Source: Erysipelotrichaceae bacterium
GTDB taxonomy: Bacteria > Bacillota_I > Bacilli_A > Erysipelotrichales > Erysipelotrichaceae
Length of the DNA: 32,000 bases
Assembly (NCBI GenBank): GCA_963676105.1
Contig: OY781039.1
Location: forward strand, 120,001 to 152,000
Direction: 5' to 3'
Of this stretch, positions 1,937 to 29,023 are shown in pieces. The notes beneath the pieces are model-generated. The model worked only from the letters and a program-made list of their open reading frames with translations. It had not been told where the DNA came from and ran no database searches. Each line of letters begins with the position of its first letter. Positions within the stretch are counted from its first letter, which is position 1. Made by a program: the position numbers and the translations under genes.

Positions 1937-2649
1937 AGAAAATGATTGTTTACGTAGTATGTGATGGCGGTATGGGCTCAAGTGCTCTTGGTGCAAGCTA
2001 TCTAAAGAAATATCTTAAGAATTCAACGATTGATGCAGATGTGGGTAATCGCTCAACCAGTGAAGACTTAAGTCAAGCAGATTTGATAGTAACCCATCAT
2101 CATTTTGAAGAAATGATACAACACAAATATCCCGATAAAAAAATATGGGGGATTAAAGATTTTGTAAATCGAGAGGAATTTAGAAAGGTTGTCGAAAAAA
2201 TGGAAAATCAAAACACAATATTATTAAAGTCAAACATTAAAGTAAATTGCGAAGTTTGTAGTAGTGATGAAGCAATTGAAAGAGCTGGAAGAGACTTAAT
2301 CAATAGTGGATATGTCGAAGAGAAATATCTTGAAGGGATGTATGAAAGAGATCATAGTCTTTCAGTGTTTATGGGCAATAAAATTGCATTACCACATGGT
2401 GAGTATGAATATAAGAAAAATATTTTAAAGAGTGGAATTGTGGTTCACATTTATCCAAAACCAATTGATTGGCATGGCAATGAAGTTAATATTGTTGTTG
2501 GTTTAGCAGGGATAGGTGAAGAACATGTTCAAATCTTAGCGAATGTTGCGGGAGCCCTTGGTGATATGGATGAAGTTGAAAAAGTCATTAGCGAACAAGA
2601 TGTTGAATATATTTACGAATTACTCACTGCCGAGGAGGATGAAGACTAA
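1915..2649 (+). CDS. mtlF: PTS mannitol-specific EIIB-EIIA fusion protein (MtlF-like with an extra N-terminal EIIB domain)
   Basis: The N-terminus (VVCDGGMGSSALGA ... DLIVTH) matches the EIIB(Mtl) phospho-Cys loop. The C-terminal half carries an EIIA type-2 signature (IALPHGEYEY ... VVGLAGIGEEH). GGAGG lies at 1897-1901. An alternative start at ATG 1933 overlaps the mtlR stop (ATGA). Confidence 0.8.
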   Translation: MDAKANMKKMIVYVVCDGGMGSSALGASYLKKYLKNSTIDADVGNRSTSEDLSQADLIVTHHHFEEMIQHKYPDKKIWGIKDFVNREEFRKVVEKMENQNTILLKSNIKVNCEVCSSDEAIERAGRDLINSGYVEEKYLEGMYERDHSLSVFMGNKIALPHGEYEYKKNILKSGIVVHIYPKPIDWHGNEVNIVVGLAGIGEEHVQILANVAGALGDMDEVEKVISEQDVEYIYELLTAEEDED

Positions 2650-3776
2650 TGAAAGCTGTACACTTCGGTGCTGGAAATATTGGTCGAGGTTTTATTGGTT
2701 TACTTTTAAGACAATCAAACTTTGAGCTAACATTTGCAGATGTTTCGGATGTTTTAATTGATGAACTCAAACGTCGTAATAGTTATAGTGTTGAAGAAAT
2801 GTCAGATGTTTCAAAAGTGATTGAAGTGAGTGGTGTAAATGCACTACATTCTGCAAAAGATTCAGATGAACTCTTTCAAACATTACTTGAAGCTGATTTA
2901 GTCACAACCGCTGTTGGACCAAATGTTTTACCAATCATTGCGAGAACACTATTACCTGTACTAAAGAAAAAAGCTGAAACAAATAATAAACATTTCTTAA
3001 ATATTGTTGCATGTGAAAATACGATTGGTGGTTCAGATCAAATTAAAGCGGCTTTATGGGATCAACTCTCAACTGAAGAACAAAGATTTATATCTGCTAC
3101 TGTTGGTTTTCCAAATTCAGCTGTCGATCGCATCGTCCCAAATCAAAAAAATGACGATGTGCTGTGGGTTAAAGTTGAACCATTTTATGAATGGGTTATT
3201 GATGAAACTGAAATTAAAGGAAAACTCGATATACAAGGTGCACATTTTGTATCTAATTTGGAAGCTTATATTGAGCGTAAACTCTTTACGGTTAATACAG
3301 GTCATGCATCATGCGCTTATGCTGCATATCAAAAAGGCTATCAAACAATTTTAGAAGCGATTAGCGATGAGAGTATTGAAACACATGTAAGAGCTGTTTT
3401 AAATGAAACGGGTGCTCTAATGGTTAAAAAACATGGTTTTGATGCGGATGAACATGCAGCTTATATAGACAAAACAGTTAAACGTTTTAAAAATCCAGCC
3501 ATTGTTGATGAAGTGGTTCGTGTCGCAAGATCACCACTTAGAAAACTATCCAGACAAGATCGGTTCATTCGTCCTTTGGTTGAATGTATTGAAAATAACT
3601 TGAGCACTGATGCTTTAGTGAAAGCAATCCATTCTGTTTTGGATTTCGACTATGCAGAAGATGCAGAAGCAATGCAAGTTCAAGCTTATAAAAAAGAATT
3701 AAGTCCTTCTGAATTCTATGAGAAAGTCTCAGGTTTAGACAAAGATTCAAAAGCCTCAAAATTATTATGTGATTAA
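2649..3776 (+). CDS. mtlD: Mannitol-1-phosphate 5-dehydrogenase
   Basis: The N-terminal Rossmann motif MKAVHFGAGNIGRGFIG and the length (375 aa) are typical of MtlD. The start overlaps the upstream stop (TAATG). Confidence 0.93.
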   Translation: MKAVHFGAGNIGRGFIGLLLRQSNFELTFADVSDVLIDELKRRNSYSVEEMSDVSKVIEVSGVNALHSAKDSDELFQTLLEADLVTTAVGPNVLPIIARTLLPVLKKKAETNNKHFLNIVACENTIGGSDQIKAALWDQLSTEEQRFISATVGFPNSAVDRIVPNQKNDDVLWVKVEPFYEWVIDETEIKGKLDIQGAHFVSNLEAYIERKLFTVNTGHASCAYAAYQKGYQTILEAISDESIETHVRAVLNETGALMVKKHGFDADEHAAYIDKTVKRFKNPAIVDEVVRVARSPLRKLSRQDRFIRPLVECIENNLSTDALVKAIHSVLDFDYAEDAEAMQVQAYKKELSPSEFYEKVSGLDKDSKASKLLCD

Positions 3777-22152: not shown

Positions 22153-22237
22153 GCCCGAGTGGTGAAATCGGTAGACGCAGTGGACTCAAAATCCACCGCC
22201 GCAAGGCATGACGGTTCGAGTCCGTCCTCGGGCACCA
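22153..22237 (+). tRNA. tRNA-Leu (anticodon CAA), CCA encoded; integration target of the adjacent islet
   Basis: The sequence is GCCCGAGTGGTGAAATCGGTAGACGCAGTGGACTCAAAATCCACCGCCGCAAGGCATGACGGTTCGAGTCCGTCCTCGGGCACCA. It has acceptor GCCCGAG/CTCGGGC, anticodon stem GTGGA/TCCAC, loop CTCAAAA, a long variable arm and a GGTTCGAGTCC T-arm. Confidence 0.93.
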
Positions 22238-22296
22238 TATTACATCTAAGCCTTTAGTTAAGGGCTTTTTTGTTGGTCTCTTTGTCCTGCGTGCCC
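22221..22296 (+). repeat. attL-side direct repeat: tRNA-Leu 3' end, terminator-like hairpin and the 3' end of the integrase gene
   Basis: The segment tccgtcctcggGcaccatattaCatc(t)aagccttt(a)gtt(a)agg..tttttt...ctttgtc recurs at 26462-26533 with a few substitutions and indels. Confidence 0.85.
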
Positions 22297-23390
22297 AATA
22301 AGTGCCCAGAATATAAATTTGGTAGTTCTGAAATGAGTGCATTTACCGCATCTTTTGTGGCATGTGTATACACTTTTAATGTCATATTTATGCTTGAATG
22401 ACCTAATCTTTGTGATACTGCAGAGATTGGAACACCATTATTTATTAAAATTGTTGCATGTGAATGTCTTAAGTCATGAAGTCTTATTTTAGATATTCCA
22501 GATTCTTCAATTGCAGCTTTAAAACGATACTGAATAACGCTATTCACTAATGGTTCTGGTCCACCAAACATAAACCAATTATCATTGTATCCATACTCAT
22601 TTTTAACCCATGATAATAAGCGTTCTATTTCTTGATCACAAATCGATGATACATTTACTTTTCTAATACTAGATCGTGTTTTTGTTGAACTGATTTTAGA
22701 TCGGTCACCTTTTGTTTTGCCTGTTACAGATTTAGTGATGGAAAATATCTTTTCATTATAGTCTTTCCACTGAATTCCTTTAGCTTCAGCACGTCGCATA
22801 CCAGTTGACCATATAGCCATTATTAATGCTTTAAAGTATTTGTCGTGCTCTGTTGTTTCTGATAGGGAAGAGTATAACTTATCAAATTCTTCAGTTATAA
22901 TTGTTCTGATACCACTATCTTCTTCATACTGATCCTTTTTAACTGGAGCAAGCAACGTGGACGGATCACTAATTGAAAACAATTGACTGCCAAATTTAAA
23001 GATAGCTTTTAACTGATGTAGTATTTCATTTTTATACTTTGGTGAATAAGATGTGGAAACTAACTTGTTTCTCCAATCTTCTAAGTGAATCGGTTTAATA
23101 TTTGTGACTTTACGATTATTCAAATCACTCATAAATTCTTCAGCTTTATATTAAATTGCATCTAATGTTGCAGAATGAACGGATTCTTTTTTACGTTCCA
23201 CATAAAGATTAACTAAATCTTTGAATGTTATGATTGAAGCTGTTGATTCACTTTGATTAAGTAGTGTTTCTCGTTCCCATTGTTGAGCTTCTTTTTTTGT
23301 TGCAAATAATTTGTTCTTTCGCTTACGTTCTCCATTAACCACCCAAGAAGCATAAGCAACGTAACCATTATCTGATTTTCGAATTGCCAT
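22254..23390 (-). pseudogene. Tyrosine recombinase/phage integrase interrupted by a single in-frame TAA (23151-23153)
   Basis: The ORF at 23151-23390 encodes an arm-type DNA-binding N-terminus (MAIRKSDNGYVAYASWVVNGERKRKNKLFATKKEAQQWE). The ORF at 22254-23132 encodes the core-binding and catalytic domains (GMRRAE, HDLRHSHAT, LGHSSINMTLKVYTH). Both are in the same frame and read ...SATLDAI*YKAEEFMSDL... A strong RBS (AAGGAGG) precedes 23390. Confidence 0.8.
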
Positions 23391-23408: not shown

Positions 23409-24305
23409 TTAGATTATTTTTCGATCTCCTGATACTATAATTTCATCCCAGTAATTATTATTGGCTAAAGACATTGAATTATTCTCATAAATAATTGTTA
23501 AATTTTGTTCATATTTATTTTTACCAGATATGTCAAAATATTCCAAAATAATGTTTAATCTCATATATTTAAAAATACTATCAGGTATTAATTCAGAGTT
23601 AATATAAAATGCAAAGTAAATTGGTTCACCTTCTGCTAAAATATTTTGTGTCTCTAAATCATTGATATTAATTTGAGTCTGATTTTTCCATAAATCTGAT
23701 TTTTTTTCGTTAGAAAATTCTATTTGAACAGTTTTTGTTTCTATATTTCTAGCTGGATTTTTATATATATTGGTTACTGTCAATGCCCATTTATCTTTAA
23801 TATATGCTGTTCCATGTTCTTCGAAATCATCATCTGTGTCTAATGTTTCTATACCTAACTTCAAAATAGGAATACCAGAATTTTTATTATTCTCTTCGTT
23901 AATACTATTTTCGTGTTGCATAGTAAAGATTACTCCAAACATTACCATCGAGCCACCAATAAGTGCTCCAAAAAATCCAATCCAACTAGACTCATTTCCT
24001 ACTGGTGTGATTGTTTCCCTAAAAATTTTCATTAATAAAATAACTATATAAACTAGAAATGGTGATGCTAGTAATACAAAAAGTGTAAAATTCAAAACCT
24101 TATCTATAAAATCTTTTGATTTATTCTCGTAAATTATTGCTATGAAATATGAAACTATATTTATTGAAACTAAAATAGAAAATAATATCTTATTTAAAGG
24201 ATTTAAATAATTAATAAGAATAATCACTGTTAAAGAAAATGAATAGATAATTGGAACTTTATATTTTTTAATATCTTCAATAAATGATTTAAATATTAGT
24301 TTCAT
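23409..24305 (-). CDS. Islet cargo: 298-aa membrane protein (about 4 TM helices) with a beta-rich soluble C-terminal domain, unknown function
   Basis: The RBS gaaaggtg precedes the ATG. Hydrophobic segments lie at roughly aa 20-38, 41-59, 72-92 and 107-127, followed by a 170-aa hydrophilic domain. I recognise no family. Confidence 0.6.
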   Translation of the reverse strand: MKLIFKSFIEDIKKYKVPIIYSFSLTVIILINYLNPLNKILFSILVSINIVSYFIAIIYENKSKDFIDKVLNFTLFVLLASPFLVYIVILLMKIFRETITPVGNESSWIGFFGALIGGSMVMFGVIFTMQHENSINEENNKNSGIPILKLGIETLDTDDDFEEHGTAYIKDKWALTVTNIYKNPARNIETKTVQIEFSNEKKSDLWKNQTQININDLETQNILAEGEPIYFAFYINSELIPDSIFKYMRLNIILEYFDISGKNKYEQNLTIIYENNSMSLANNNYWDEIIVSGDRKII

Positions 24306-24356
24306 GGCTACACCTTTCTAGGTCTGGGTTTATAAACATAACCTCTTTCAATTTTT

Positions 24357-25259
24357 TTAAATATTAGATATATTTATGATTGTTTTTAATTGTTCTAGTG
24401 ACGTTTTATTACCAAAAACATACATATATGATGATAAAAAATTAAAAATATTATAAGTTCTTACATCACTCCAACTAAGTTCTATTACATTTGAATTATT
24501 TTTAGCTTCTGTTAGCATTCTAGCTGCAGTTCTTTTAACCCTGAATACTAATGCTCTTTCTGAAGATATTGGTAAACAAAAATCATTAAATCCAGTATTC
24601 AATTGGAAAGATGGATTATCAGATAATATAAATCCCAATCCAGTATTATTTTTTGCATAGTATATTTCATATTCATTAAATATCATTAATGTAAACTCAA
24701 CAAAACCTTTTAAATTAAATATAGAATTAATTTGAGCAGTCTTACCAGTTGACGCTTTTGAAAGCTCGATTTGTTCTTTAGGTAATTTATAAGCTCTACC
24801 TAAGTCTTCTAAAATCGCATTTACATCATTAGCAAAATTATCTACTTTATCCCTATAAAATAATGTTCTATGTGCTAAATCATATAAAAACAGAATTAAT
24901 AACATTCTATCGTCATTACTTAAAACCAGATAATCATGTTTAAGTATTCTATTTAGTAAAATAGAAGTAGCATATTCTATTTTTGCAAAATAGTTTTCAA
25001 CAAAATTTTCATCTTTTAAATCAATATATTCTGAAAGTTTTGGAGTTATTTCTAATACCATGCTTAAAGCATCTTTTAAATCAGATTCATTTACATCATA
25101 AAATTTATTAGACGTAGCGAATGACTTAGTATTAGTTCTAGTTATAATGTTATCATCTTTTATTTTATACACACAAAATCCATGAACAGAATCTTTAAAT
25201 TTTTTCATTAAAAATTGTGGAATATAATGTTGGCTAATTACTTTATTCTTACGCATCAT
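24357..25259 (-). CDS. Islet cargo: DUF4238-family protein
   Basis: The N-terminal QHYIPQFLMKKF motif and the C-terminal GFILSDNPSF motif are the two hallmark motifs I associate with DUF4238. The start overlaps the upstream gene by 11 nt. Confidence 0.78.
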   Translation of the reverse strand: MMRKNKVISQHYIPQFLMKKFKDSVHGFCVYKIKDDNIITRTNTKSFATSNKFYDVNESDLKDALSMVLEITPKLSEYIDLKDENFVENYFAKIEYATSILLNRILKHDYLVLSNDDRMLLILFLYDLAHRTLFYRDKVDNFANDVNAILEDLGRAYKLPKEQIELSKASTGKTAQINSIFNLKGFVEFTLMIFNEYEIYYAKNNTGLGFILSDNPSFQLNTGFNDFCLPISSERALVFRVKRTAARMLTEAKNNSNVIELSWSDVRTYNIFNFLSSYMYVFGNKTSLEQLKTIINISNI

Positions 25260-25635
25260 TGTTATTTATTCCTAATTGTTTAGCTATTAATTCAGCAGTT
25301 ACTTTTGCAGCGAATGTAGCTAATATATCAATTGAAACAGATCCAACTTTATTTGCAGCCTTTTTGGTTTTATCCCAAGATCCTTGTGGTCGTATGTTGC
25401 CTAGAAATTGATGTCCATAATAGCTTAATGACATAACAGTAAATTCATAATCACTTAAAGTAGATTGGTCTTTTGCATCTAAAAAACCTGCTTCATAAAG
25501 CCTTTTAATAGTATAGTTTATTTCATCTTTGTCATAATCTTTAACAATGAATTTATTGGATTCTATATAATGACGATATGGTATTTCCTCAATGGCTAAC
25601 ATAACATCTCTTACACACTCATGGCTTAATTTCAT
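25249..25635 (-). CDS. Islet cargo: small DUF2513/YjcQ-like winged-helix protein
   Basis: The N-terminus (MKLSHECVRDVMLAIEEIP ... YTIKRLYEAGFLDA) resembles the DUF2513 wHTH pattern. The protein is 128 aa. Confidence 0.55.
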   Translation of the reverse strand: MKLSHECVRDVMLAIEEIPYRHYIESNKFIVKDYDKDEINYTIKRLYEAGFLDAKDQSTLSDYEFTVMSLSYYGHQFLGNIRPQGSWDKTKKAANKVGSVSIDILATFAAKVTAELIAKQLGINNNDA

Positions 25636-25647
25636 GTTCTTTTATTC

Positions 25648-26274
25648 TCACTCTCTATCTTGCAACCATAATCCATATTTGTTGACTCCTCTTACATTAT
25701 TGATAAGTGGCCAACAATCAGCTATATACTTTTCTTTGTCATAAGTGTCTGCTTCTAATAAACATTCAGTTCTTCCTTCAGGTGTTCCTGGGAAGTCTTT
25801 AACAGTATTTTCGTTATATACTGTTAAATCTTCTTCAAATACATAATCACATGGTAAATATGGATTATCTGCAGCTGTACCGTTTTCAGGATCATCAGGA
25901 CATATAATTTCAGGTTCACCAACAATTAGGGTAAACTCTTCTATATCTTTTGCACCATTTTTATCTGTTGCTACATAATAGAGTTGATACTCTCCAATTA
26001 CATTAAAATCATAATATCCATCAACAACAACTTCCAAAGAGTTTCCTTCGTAGTCAACAGCAGAAACTCCATCGATTAGATCGATTGGTTTATTCCATAC
26101 TGTTTCTAAAACATCATTAGTAAAAGTAATTGCTGGAGGAGTTTTAATTTCTTTAACTTCTTCCGTTGTTTCATTAACTTCATCTTCTATTATTTGCTTC
26201 TCATTTTCTGAAGTGTTTTGCTGAGCACATGATGCTAATAAAACTAAATTAACAATCAATATTATCTTTTTCAT
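25648..26274 (-). CDS. Islet cargo: lipoprotein with an Ig-like (DUF5011-type) domain
   Basis: The signal peptide has a lipobox (LLASC). The segment IDLIDGVSAVDYEGNSLEVVVDGYYDFNVIGEYQLYYVATDKNGAKDIEEFTLIV resembles the DUF5011 bacterial Ig-like fold. A Cys-containing C-terminal region follows. Confidence 0.72.
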   Translation of the reverse strand: MKKIILIVNLVLLASCAQQNTSENEKQIIEDEVNETTEEVKEIKTPPAITFTNDVLETVWNKPIDLIDGVSAVDYEGNSLEVVVDGYYDFNVIGEYQLYYVATDKNGAKDIEEFTLIVGEPEIICPDDPENGTAADNPYLPCDYVFEEDLTVYNENTVKDFPGTPEGRTECLLEADTYDKEKYIADCWPLINNVRGVNKYGLWLQDRE

Positions 26275-26461
26275 AGTCCCACCTATACTTTATTAATATA
26301 ACCTTTCTTTTTATTGTTATCCACTTCAATTTTTCTACGTGCCCAAAAAATGCCCATTCATGTATAATTTATTAAACAAAAAATCGTATTGTAACTTGCA
26401 AAGCCTATTAAAATAAGGCTTTTTGAATACTTATAAAATTTATGAAATACAAAAATTAGTT

Positions 26462-26533
26462 TCCGTCCTCGGACACCATATTAAATCAAGCCTTTGTTGA
26501 GGTTTTTTTAGATTCTTTGTCTAAAGCACCTAA
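26462..26533 (+). repeat. attR-side direct repeat (displaced tRNA-Leu 3' end copy plus downstream homology)
   Basis: The sequence tccgtcctcggAcaccatattaAatcaagcctttgttgaggttttttt...ctttgtc is present. The G-to-A change would break acceptor-stem pairing, so this copy is not part of a functional tRNA. Confidence 0.85.
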
Positions 26534-26692: not shown

Positions 26693-29023
26693 CTATTTTG
26701 TAAATCTTCCTTTTATTAAAAATATTGCTGTTGCAAATATAATCACAATAAATGCAATAAGTGTAATGGTTATCCATGACAATCCATGGCTATAATCCTC
26801 ATCATATTCAATTTTGGAATCATCAAGTGATTCTGTGTCTTGTGAGTCAACAATTGAATTTTCAGAAATTTCTGGTTCGCTGTAACTCATAAAATATCCT
26901 TGTTGAACTGCTTGTGAATAGTTTTTGTAGAATTCACTAGAAGTAAACGAATGAGTAGTAGAATCTTCTCCATTTTCGTGTGATACAAAAGTTATTTCGC
27001 TGTAATATTGTAAAGGTGGATTTTGAATATATATATAACCATCAATGACATCTGATACTATTGAATAGTTCAGATTTGGTGTGTCTGGGAAATAATAGTT
27101 TATTTGATATCTGTCGCTGTTCGTGTCAATTTTGACAAAATGCCCTGGTAATAAAAATGTCCGATATCTGTCTGGATTGTTTGCATTAGCTGAATTCCCA
27201 ATAATATAAGTATCCCTATATTCCTGATAGTATATCCCATTTTGATCTTTAGCATTATAGTCGACAAACGGTTCTCCTTCGTCATACATAAAGTTATCAT
27301 TTAAGTCTACAAATGCTTCGCCAACATTGTGAACACCCGCACCTTCTTCTAGTACATCTGTTACTGCAAAGAAGCCATGATCAATAAACACTTGATCAAT
27401 AGCATCAGAAATTTCAGGGTGATTATGTTGAAGTGCATCATATAAATCAGCACAATGGCGTTGTTTTTCTCTCAAAATAGCGAATAAATCATTTATAGAA
27501 ACCTGATCATCATCCTCCTCACCTGCGTCTATAAAATCATACAATAAGCTTGCCACGGCAATAGTTTCAGAAAATCCATAATTTTCCCAAACTTTATGAT
27601 TTAGTTCTGGATTCCCCATAATATTCGAGAACTCATCATAGTAATGCATAGCGATAATGTTTTCCATAAAAATAGCAAAGCCTTCGGAATAAGAATAGCC
27701 TGTGTAAGAGTTAGCATAACCACCATGATGTGTGTCAGTATCAATACCACTGTCGCCAGGATAATCTGGATAATACAGCATAGTCATAACATAGTGTGAT
27801 AGTTCGTGGTATATAGTGTAGGGCATAGCACTCGAAGTAATATTCGAATAGTTTTCCATGATATGGATTTGACTTGTTTCCGAAACATAATAACCTGTGG
27901 CAGAAGCCGTTTCAGTATCTGTTTCATTTAATATCAGTTTTAAAGGTAATCGCGAATCGAACTCAAAGTTAAAGACATCTTTATAGTAATCGACTGCTTC
28001 CTTCATGCTTTGATAAAAATATACATATGTATTGGAGCTAGTACCAGCTTCAGTTGTTTCTTCAAAAGCTTGGCTTTCATATAGGCTACTAACGATATCC
28101 AAGTCACTTGACGAATTTATGGTATATTCTCCACAGTAAATCATTACTACTTCATCCATAGCGGTATTATCATCTGTTACATAGAAAACTGCTTGATCTG
28201 TATCATCAAAATACATTAGAGAAGTACTTACTACGACTTTATAACCTTGATCAACAGGATACGGAAAATCAACACTGAATTCTCCTTCATGAGTTGTATT
28301 GAGTTCGATTTGATCAAGCTGTTCGCCATTTTCGTTGAAAATATTAAGGAATACTTTCATGTTTTCAGCTTGGTGTTGAACCAAACCATCTTTGTCAAAT
28401 ACCATTTTTCCTTGGATTGAGTATTCCTCACTGTCATCTAACTGTTCTGTTTCTGTTGTTGAAGAAATCGATCCAGCTGATTTTTCAACCAGAGAGTCAA
28501 AATAATTTATAATAACGGATAGAAAATTATCAAAGTTTTCTTTAGGCACATTGAAATCAACATCTGCCATAATCGGTTTTCTCAAATAATAGATTTCACC
28601 CTCAATATTTGAAGATGCTTCACGTGATTTCAAAGCAAAATTATCGGAAATTGAAAAATTATAATAATCATCTTTTTGTTCCTTCGCCCACTCAATGTCA
28701 TCGGCAATATCTTCGACTTGAGCCATCTGTTCAAAATCATCACCTTCAACATAACCAACATTTACCCAAATTCTTCCTCCCATTTCTGAACTTTCTATGG
28801 GAAGTCGATACTCAATTTTGGCGTCAAAATATTTATCCTTAATTATTTCAAATGACTCTGATTTGTATAGTTCGAAACCATATGTTTCAAATTCAGAAAT
28901 TTTTGGCTCATCACCTAGCACCTCTTTTGGATCATCAACTGCTAAAACATCAACAATAAAAAAATTAACAATAAAAAATATAACGAATATGGCCGTTAAA
29001 TAGTAGTTAAATTTATTTTTCAT
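26693..29023 (-). CDS. 776-aa surface-anchored putative gluzincin metalloprotease (HExxH), with an N-terminal signal/anchor and a C-terminal TM helix
   Basis: The motif YHELSHYVM ... SEGFAIFME gives HExxH plus a downstream Glu, as in peptidase_MA-type folds. There is a hydrophobic N-terminus (LTAIFVIFFIVNFFIV) and a C-terminal TM (WITITLIAFIVIIFATAIFLI) followed by KGRFTK. Confidence 0.65.
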   Translation of the reverse strand: MKNKFNYYLTAIFVIFFIVNFFIVDVLAVDDPKEVLGDEPKISEFETYGFELYKSESFEIIKDKYFDAKIEYRLPIESSEMGGRIWVNVGYVEGDDFEQMAQVEDIADDIEWAKEQKDDYYNFSISDNFALKSREASSNIEGEIYYLRKPIMADVDFNVPKENFDNFLSVIINYFDSLVEKSAGSISSTTETEQLDDSEEYSIQGKMVFDKDGLVQHQAENMKVFLNIFNENGEQLDQIELNTTHEGEFSVDFPYPVDQGYKVVVSTSLMYFDDTDQAVFYVTDDNTAMDEVVMIYCGEYTINSSSDLDIVSSLYESQAFEETTEAGTSSNTYVYFYQSMKEAVDYYKDVFNFEFDSRLPLKLILNETDTETASATGYYVSETSQIHIMENYSNITSSAMPYTIYHELSHYVMTMLYYPDYPGDSGIDTDTHHGGYANSYTGYSYSEGFAIFMENIIAMHYYDEFSNIMGNPELNHKVWENYGFSETIAVASLLYDFIDAGEEDDDQVSINDLFAILREKQRHCADLYDALQHNHPEISDAIDQVFIDHGFFAVTDVLEEGAGVHNVGEAFVDLNDNFMYDEGEPFVDYNAKDQNGIYYQEYRDTYIIGNSANANNPDRYRTFLLPGHFVKIDTNSDRYQINYYFPDTPNLNYSIVSDVIDGYIYIQNPPLQYYSEITFVSHENGEDSTTHSFTSSEFYKNYSQAVQQGYFMSYSEPEISENSIVDSQDTESLDDSKIEYDEDYSHGLSWITITLIAFIVIIFATAIFLIKGRFTK

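Follow-up and report, generated by a model that had tools for sequence, protein, structure and literature searches.

The stretch of DNA analysed here, referred to as the window, comprises 32,000 nucleotides (nt) of contig OY781039.1 (positions 120,001 to 152,000, forward strand; assembly GCA_963676105.1) from an Erysipelotrichaceae bacterium. A small integrative islet at a tRNA-Leu gene carries an operon that encodes a lipoprotein, a DUF2513 winged-helix protein, a DUF4238 protein and a membrane protein with four N-terminal helices, here called TM4. The last three proteins had been proposed in a preliminary description to form one anti-phage system of sensor, regulator and effector. The comparison of related loci points, on balance, to separately mobile genes stacked in one operon. 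In transcription order, the operon comprises the following features (protein lengths in amino acids, aa):

26295-26323, minus strand: promoter-like site upstream of the lipoprotein gene, candidate promoter of the operon (consensus scan, 9/12, a weak pattern match only)
25648-26274, minus strand: lipoprotein, 208 aa, with signal peptide and lipobox LLAS|C; first gene of the operon and fourth cargo gene (open reading frame and sequence)
25249-25635, minus strand: DUF2513 winged-helix protein, 128 aa (PF10711, E=5e-23; phrog_585, E=1e-28)
24357-25259, minus strand: DUF4238 protein, 300 aa (PF14022, E=1.5e-24), with QHYIPQF, E88, E95, R131, SDNP and P-I-S; AlphaFold2 (AF2) model with a predicted local distance difference test (pLDDT) score of 80.6
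23409-24305, minus strand: TM4, 298 aa, four N-terminal hydrophobic helices and a C-terminal beta-rich domain of ~150 aa (open reading frame list, AF2, family alignment)
23151-23390, minus strand: N-terminal part of the integrase, 79 aa, arm-DNA-binding domain (Pfam Arm-DNA-bind_4, E=3e-8)
22254-23132, minus strand: C-terminal part of the integrase, 292 aa, core-binding and catalytic domain (Pfam Phage_integrase, E=2e-26; phrog_1, E=6e-53)

The minus-strand genes follow each other in the order lipoprotein, DUF2513, DUF4238, TM4 and integrase pieces, with intergenic spacings of 12, -11, 51 and 18 nt. The layout that the preliminary description had read from the sequence, three co-directional genes with an 11-nt overlap and a 51-nt gap containing a ribosome-binding site, is correct: DUF2513 and DUF4238 overlap at 25249-25259, DUF4238 and TM4 are separated by 24306-24356, and the ribosome-binding site AAAGGTG lies 5 nt ahead of the TM4 ATG. 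The interval 23409-25635 given there cut the operon, since the lipoprotein gene, located 12 nt upstream of DUF2513, is also inside the islet. The stop codon of TM4 precedes the integrase start by 18 nt. In the consensus scan, the site upstream of the lipoprotein gene was the sole suitably placed promoter-like site, and no terminator-like site was found inside the cassette. A 16-codon upstream open reading frame (24289-24339, minus strand) follows GAAAGAGG; it begins in the 51-nt gap and extends over the TM4 start codon in a different frame. The spacing between GAAAGAGG and its ATG is very short, and the frame may be meaningless.

Recurrence of the genes was assessed by a co-occurrence tally, in which all open reading frames at loci around relatives of each gene were scored with hidden Markov models (HMMs) from our own alignments. 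The DUF4238 loci were drawn from species-representative genomes, metagenomes, viral contigs and exact-protein look-ups. None of the 26 DUF4238 loci (19 distinct proteins) had a relative of DUF2513 or TM4 within 4-6 kb, and DUF4238 was absent from all 87 DUF2513 loci as well as from all 11 TM4 loci (about eight independent ones). DUF4238 was never found with DUF2513 or TM4 in these 124 loci, few close relatives being in existence, and the trio did not emerge as a conserved multi-gene system; the proposal of a single sensor, regulator and effector system was not borne out by these counts. Only three close relatives (>38% identity) of this DUF4238 subfamily and one of TM4 were present in the databases searched, so that the counts say little about conservation at short range.

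Relatives of TM4 and DUF2513 were found adjacent only at locus L105, on the same contig as L110. It encodes cI, ImmA, a TM4 homologue (335 aa), a DUF2513 protein (126 aa) and an integrase, all co-directional and with 18-nt gaps, lacks DUF4238, and has the TM4-DUF2513 order reversed relative to the window. A single phage type (loci L021 and L023) carries TM4 and DUF2513 in one prophage, 2.5 kb apart and with cI/cro between them. Six of the seven independent loci found via TM4 were devoid of DUF2513, including L003 and L111 with two of the three close TM4-family relatives, and 83 of the 87 DUF2513 loci were devoid of TM4. Members of each of the three families are found by themselves among the cargo of integrative elements or in defence islands, and their neighbours vary.

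The DUF4238 protein of the window is a member of PF14022, with 87.3 bits (cut-off 27) and residues 10-286 aligned to positions 2-280 of the 281 of the profile. H11, Y12, I13, P14, Q15, F16, E88, E95 and R131 are invariant, SDNP and P-I-S nearly so, and the columns QHYIPQF, E, E and R are common to 75 homologues. The invariance of H, Y, E, E and R hints at a possible enzyme. In the AF2 model, based on a 76-sequence alignment (pLDDT 80.6, predicted template modelling score 0.79), the N-terminal and C-terminal segments together form an alpha/beta core, and the insertion that separates them is a helical bundle. A Foldseek comparison of this model with the PDB, one of the checks proposed earlier, yielded nothing below E=1 (best E=1.4); the only structural match among viral models was gp44 of phage Smp131, itself a DUF4238 protein. 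Profile searches of PDB sequences with DUF4238 and with DUF2513 produced nothing above noise, and DUF4238 had no tblastn match in the phage collection or the plasmid collection.

The closest DUF4238 relatives are only 38-40% identical to the window protein. One is followed by the gene of a secreted 516-aa Big_2 protein, with a DUF4011 helicase alongside, and another faces a 240-aa single-transmembrane (TM) protein. The profile search gave 264 DUF4238 matches, and all of the 120 listed were single-domain proteins of ~300 aa. Other neighbourhoods contained two GmrSD genes, McrBC with a DUF4365 helicase, a 1168-aa SIR2_2 protein, or Fic with AAA_14 and AAA; serine recombinases together with restriction-modification or DUF262 genes were further neighbours. 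An integrase adjoins DUF4238 in one viral contig and in the P2-like Stenotrophomonas phage Smp131. The surroundings of two loci (L121 and L119) were not obviously defensive. With GmrSD, McrBC, SIR2_2 and Fic/AAA genes next to DUF4238, and Mrr-type, SIR2_2 and RNase_T-BRCT genes next to TM4, the anti-phage role suggested in the preliminary description is plausible. At two loci (L012, 4966-6292; L113, 3989-5498), the DUF4238 stop codon overlaps the start codon of a following gene, which encodes a small protein rich in cysteine (138 or 202 aa) with repeated CxCxCG motifs, and both pairs are located just downstream of large serine recombinase genes. This Cys-rich protein may be a different recurrent partner of DUF4238.

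A defence function has been established for one family member: Rst_DUF4238, a single DUF4238 protein from a P2 hotspot in E. coli, is protective against T7 (Rousset et al. 2022, PMC9122126), in agreement with the preliminary description. In addition, a defence system that contains TIR and includes a DUF4238 domain shows activity in E. coli (Nat Commun 2024, PMC11350192). The PADLOC model PDLC03000 (DUF4238-Pers) did not match the window protein at E<=0.1 or at E<=10, and no cargo protein matched any PADLOC model. PDLC03000 (PADLOC v2.0.0) missed seven of eight Pfam-confirmed DUF4238 proteins, including the window protein and Smp131 gp44, and matched P0109 weakly. Defence annotation probably undercounts DUF4238 outside a narrow clade, and current defence finders would probably miss the branch of the window protein, which adds a distant new member to a known defence family.

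Membership of the DUF2513 protein in PF10711 is supported by 81.7 bits (cut-off 29.6) over profile positions 1-99 of 100, and the protein is 34-42% identical to phage homologues. According to the alignment, the 11-nt overlap with the DUF4238 start stems from 5-6 additional residues at the C-terminus, an extension absent from the phage homologues. The missing extension suggests that the junction of the two genes is secondary and does not reflect an old coupled pair. DUF2513 was present in 113 phage records, mostly of Staphylococcus, Streptococcus, Paenibacillus and Lactobacillus, and in 565 IMG/VR stretches. In the annotated phages and the 80 viral loci examined, it was almost always solitary and oriented with repressor and integrase (lysogenic direction), often antisense among early lytic genes. 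In Erysipelothrix phage SE-1 (locus L015, 1715-2709), the gene 50 nt downstream of DUF2513 encodes a 192-aa protein that combines a single TM helix with a beta-rich domain, whose strand motif K-I-S-N-L-T-N-E-P superficially resembles the beta-domain of TM4. No relationship of this protein to TM4 was detectable (hhalign probability 0.6%). Likewise, a 298-aa protein from the lysogeny module of a Solobacterium phage has the length of TM4 and proved to be unrelated and without a TM helix.

TM4 is a member of an undescribed family that is absent from Pfam, PHROGs and PADLOC. The window protein matched no family of these three collections at E<=0.01; among 60 relatives there were none in PHROGs, scattered single Pfam matches and two marginal PADLOC matches. 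A tblastn search of the phage collection found no TM4 homologue. An exhaustive HMMER scan of 1.84 billion proteins recovered 164 family representatives (50% identity) at E<=1e-3, most of them 250-340 aa long and of the same architecture. The AF2 model of TM4, of low confidence (two-sequence alignment, pLDDT 55), has four long helices followed by about eight strands, in agreement with the sequence. Conservation is strongest in the last helix, with the family motif W-I-G-F-F-G-x-L-I-G-G (also given as W-I-G-F-F-G-S-I-I-G-G), of which W108, F111 and G113 stand out and I109 and G118 are nearly invariant. Means of lysine plus arginine over 60 members were 2.9 for the N-terminus, 4.4 for the 20 residues after the last helix and 0.9 for the loop before the helix. 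By the positive-inside rule, the N-terminus and the beta-domain are predicted to be cytoplasmic (N-in/C-in), a signal that is weak in the window protein itself. A likeness of the glycine-rich helix to Pfam putAbiC was dropped, as none of the 60 family members matched the putAbiC model.

The closest TM4 homologue (42% identity) is preceded by the gene of a 223-aa single-TM coiled-coil protein. At L105, L107 and L111 the homologue resides in a prophage lysogeny module, after a cI-like repressor and directly or nearly directly upstream of an integrase or serine recombinase; L105 and L107 also have an ImmA/IrrE protease gene before it. At L106 it follows a cI-like gene, and the integrase is encoded further downstream on the opposite strand. 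Between repressor and TM4 homologue, L111 encodes a 426-aa protein (2334-3614) with an N-terminal TM helix, an RNase_T exonuclease and a BRCT domain. The lysogeny module of a viral contig (L108, 1736-7156) is an apparent defence stack, in which a TM-FtsK-gamma-Mrr_cat protein (437 aa) is followed by two TM4-like paralogues in tandem (265 and 300 aa), then by two small proteins and an SIR2_2 protein (527 aa).

The lipoprotein had only a weak Pfam match to Bact_surface_Ig-like (E=2e-4, under the cut-off), and no meaningful phage homologue was found. It has a lipobox, and Pfam detected no domain of the Ltp family in it.

The boundaries of the islet were defined by the following features, including the attachment (att) repeats:

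22153-22237, plus strand: tRNA-Leu(CAA), the integration target, with its 3' end within the att repeat (ARAGORN; Rfam tRNA, 54 bits)
22221-22246: att copy at the tRNA end, 26-nt direct repeat, 24/26 identical to 26462-26487
26462-26487: att copy at the distal end, partner of 22221-22246 (repeat search)
22248-22267, plus strand: terminator-like hairpin directly after tRNA-Leu, on the islet side of the att core, overlapping the integrase stop codon (consensus scan)
22282-22308 and 26330-26356: second repeat pair TGGGCAnnTTnTTGGGCACG, just inside each islet end (repeat search, 81% identity, spacing 4048 nt)

The att repeat comprises the last 17 nt of tRNA-Leu and the next 9 nt. Its copies are 4241 nt apart and delimit an islet of 4.25 kb. 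With a tyrosine integrase adjoining the tRNA gene and the tRNA 3' end directly repeated at the other boundary, the element is a tRNA-linked integrative islet. The idea that the three genes are the core cargo of a minimal integrase islet was thus right regarding the islet and incomplete in two respects, as there are four cargo genes and the integrase is interrupted. The second repeat is imperfect and direct, is itself an internal tandem of GGGCA and has one copy within the 3' end of the integrase gene; judged by sequence, the pair may represent arm-type integrase sites, one per islet end. The hairpin lies beyond the att core on the islet side, so the islet may supply the terminator of tRNA-Leu.

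A single in-frame TAA (23151-23153) splits the integrase between the arm-binding and the core/catalytic part, both of which are in the same frame. The sequence aligns without gaps across this codon with four intact integrases and retains the catalytic R, HxxR and Y. The gene is probably a nonsense pseudogene or a split gene, and the one TAA in an otherwise colinear integrase with its catalytic residues suggests that the islet was probably immobilised recently. An alternative genetic code was ruled out as the cause, since the codon is TAA and long open reading frames elsewhere are normal under table 11.

The interval 23409-25635 is the most AT-rich part of the window. The guanine-plus-cytosine (GC) content is 0.24 in the DUF4238 and TM4 genes, 0.30-0.32 in the DUF2513 and lipoprotein genes and 0.33 in the integrase; the flanking host genes range from 0.30 to 0.33, and the whole contig (1.96 Mb) has 0.32. 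This composition (0.24 versus 0.30-0.33) and the att repeats at tRNA-Leu support the earlier view of horizontally acquired accessory cargo. All six proteins looked up, four from the islet and two from flanking host genes, were singletons at 90% identity in a collection of 15 billion proteins, and a scan of 185,579 species genomes did not recover the locus of the window itself. The source organism appears to belong to a lineage without a sequenced close relative.

We favour, with moderate confidence, the interpretation that the operon is a mosaic stack of independently mobile prophage-type immunity genes, such as temperate Bacillota phages carry and express during lysogeny ("morons"), and not one co-evolved three-component system. 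The four cargo genes are intact and the integrase is broken, which suggests that the cargo is under selection. A role in defence or exclusion is the most economical guess, since a lone DUF4238 protein protects E. coli against T7 (PMC9122126) and, in Gram-positive prophages, the slot between repressor and integrase houses exclusion genes such as ltp (PMC3952083). In such a stack, the operon would be transcribed from the promoter-like site upstream of the lipoprotein gene and, as far as the sequence tells, without an internal terminator. DUF4238 alone would provide a cytoplasmic single-protein defence like its distant relative Rst_DUF4238 in E. coli. TM4 alone would be a membrane-embedded exclusion or abortive-infection protein. 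Contact of its predicted cytoplasmic beta-domain with a phage component might trigger oligomerisation or pore formation through the glycine-rich last helix; TM4 might just as well stop incoming DNA on the inner side of the membrane. DUF2513 would bind DNA as a winged-helix protein and either regulate the operon or act separately, and the lipoprotein may be a surface-exposed exclusion factor, analogous and not homologous to Ltp.

Several observations weigh against such a mosaic. The five genes are very tightly packed without an internal terminator, and the frame overlap of DUF2513 and DUF4238 makes translational coupling possible. DUF4238 and TM4 share a GC content of 0.24, unlike DUF2513 and the lipoprotein, and thus possibly arrived together. 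Sampling is the main weakness, with few relatives above 38% identity and no sequenced close relative of the genome, and the operon could be a lineage-restricted system. Furthermore, the PADLOC model for DUF4238 does not recognise the window protein, and to our knowledge no function has been shown for DUF2513, TM4 or this DUF4238 subfamily.

The tight packing, the 11-nt overlap, the single apparent transcription unit and the equally low GC of DUF4238 and TM4 would also suit a three-component abortive-infection system with DUF2513 as regulator or antitoxin, DUF4238 as sensor or enzyme and TM4 as membrane effector, and DUF4238 can be part of a composite system, as in the TIR system active in E. 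coli (PMC11350192). We nevertheless regard this system as very unlikely, given that neither the trio nor DUF4238 with either partner recurred in the 26, 87 and 11 loci, that the closest relatives of DUF4238 and TM4 have different neighbours, that all listed DUF4238 homologues are stand-alone proteins of ~300 aa in highly variable neighbourhoods, and that the validated family member works alone. An improbable alternative is a genuine two-gene module of DUF2513 as winged-helix regulator or sensor and TM4 as membrane effector, a lysogeny cargo of prophages next to the integrase, into which, in this islet, a stand-alone DUF4238 defence gene was inserted. L105, with both genes adjacent, co-directional and separated by 18-nt gaps in the absence of DUF4238, speaks for it, as do the shared prophage of L021/L023 and the TM/beta-rich 192-aa protein found 50 nt after DUF2513 in SE-1. 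However, the gene order of L105 is reversed, the genes of L021/L023 are 2.5 kb apart with cI and cro between them, the SE-1 protein is not detectably related to TM4, and most loci of either family (six of seven, and 83 of 87) lack the other. As DUF2513 and TM4 favour the same prophage region, their chance co-residence is expected, which counts against a functional pair.

It is rather unlikely that the cargo has no anti-phage role and that the islet, in a state of decay, carries either regulatory or lysogenic-conversion genes left behind by a deleted prophage or proteins of the surface and membrane that serve host ecology. The integrase is already a pseudogene, no protein matches a PADLOC model, no tested function is known for DUF2513, TM4 or the lipoprotein, and the DUF4238 neighbourhoods of L121 and L119 are not obviously defensive, all of which would fit such a decaying element. 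Against it stand the four intact cargo genes next to the broken integrase, the proven anti-phage phenotype of one DUF4238 family member, the defence genes in many neighbourhoods and the slot between repressor and integrase as a classical site of exclusion genes such as ltp (PMC3952083). Only tentatively, and with low expectation, can TM4 be put forward as the founding example of a membrane family of prophage lysogeny modules and a new effector of abortive infection or superinfection exclusion, working with DUF2513 in some elements (this islet and L105); the strongest version of this idea adds an input from DUF4238.

Among known systems, lambda RexA/RexB belongs to the immunity region of the prophage and consists of a sensor and of RexB, a membrane ion channel with four TM helices that aborts infection; rexA and rexB are an obligate pair. 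The operon of the window resembles it in the co-expression of a polytopic membrane protein with a cytoplasmic partner as lysogeny-oriented cargo, compatible with a sensor-plus-pore logic. It differs in that the partner of TM4 is not conserved, and nothing in Pfam or PADLOC links TM4 to RexB, a comparison that did not include a Rex profile search. Sie2009 of lactococcal P335 phages is a superinfection-exclusion gene, and Sie2009 and Ltp, like the products considered here, are membrane or lipid-anchored proteins encoded by single-gene "morons" that move between phages. The TM4 family shares with Ltp of S. thermophilus phage TP-J34 (PMC3952083) the slot between repressor and integrase and the orientation expressed in the lysogen. 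Unlike Ltp, TM4 is predicted to have its soluble domain in the cytoplasm and not at the surface, and the window genes reside on a phage-less islet. No sequence relationship to these exclusion proteins was found, and neither the lipoprotein nor TM4 has an Ltp-type domain according to Pfam. With Rst_DUF4238 the window protein has in common a full-length match to PF14022, a single domain of ~300 aa and its place as integrative-element cargo next to an integrase, an arrangement also found in Smp131. Its sequence is very distant, with no match to DUF4238-Pers even at E<=10, its host appears, from strep-type PBP matches and the Bacillota phage relatives, to be of the low-GC Gram-positive type, and its gene lies within a five-gene operon, overlapping an upstream winged-helix gene by 11 nt, with neither neighbour conserved elsewhere. 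The TIR/DUF4238 system indicates that DUF4238 can act within a composite system; its partner is a TIR NADase and neither a winged-helix nor a membrane protein (PMC11350192), and no TIR domain is encoded in the window.

If the operon is indeed a stack of separate genes, the islet would be a compact, phage-less integrase element that kept prophage immunity morons after its mobility was lost, a useful and unsurprising case. tRNA-linked defence islets belong to a known kind of element, and on present evidence the trio does not qualify as a new system. The leads are the Bacillota branch of DUF4238 that current defence-finder HMMs probably miss, the unstudied DUF2513 as a very common phage winged-helix protein in lysogenic orientation and, most interesting of these, the TM4 family, often in the exclusion-gene slot of Gram-positive prophages. 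A phenotype for any of them would add a family to the defence catalogue and not a new category.

Just outside the islet, positions 26693-29023 encode a 776-aa protein that starts with a signal or anchor sequence and ends with a TM anchor. Its only Pfam match, Glyoxalase, is below the threshold; the protein contains an HExxH-like motif (HELSH) and may be an uncharacterised surface metalloprotease.

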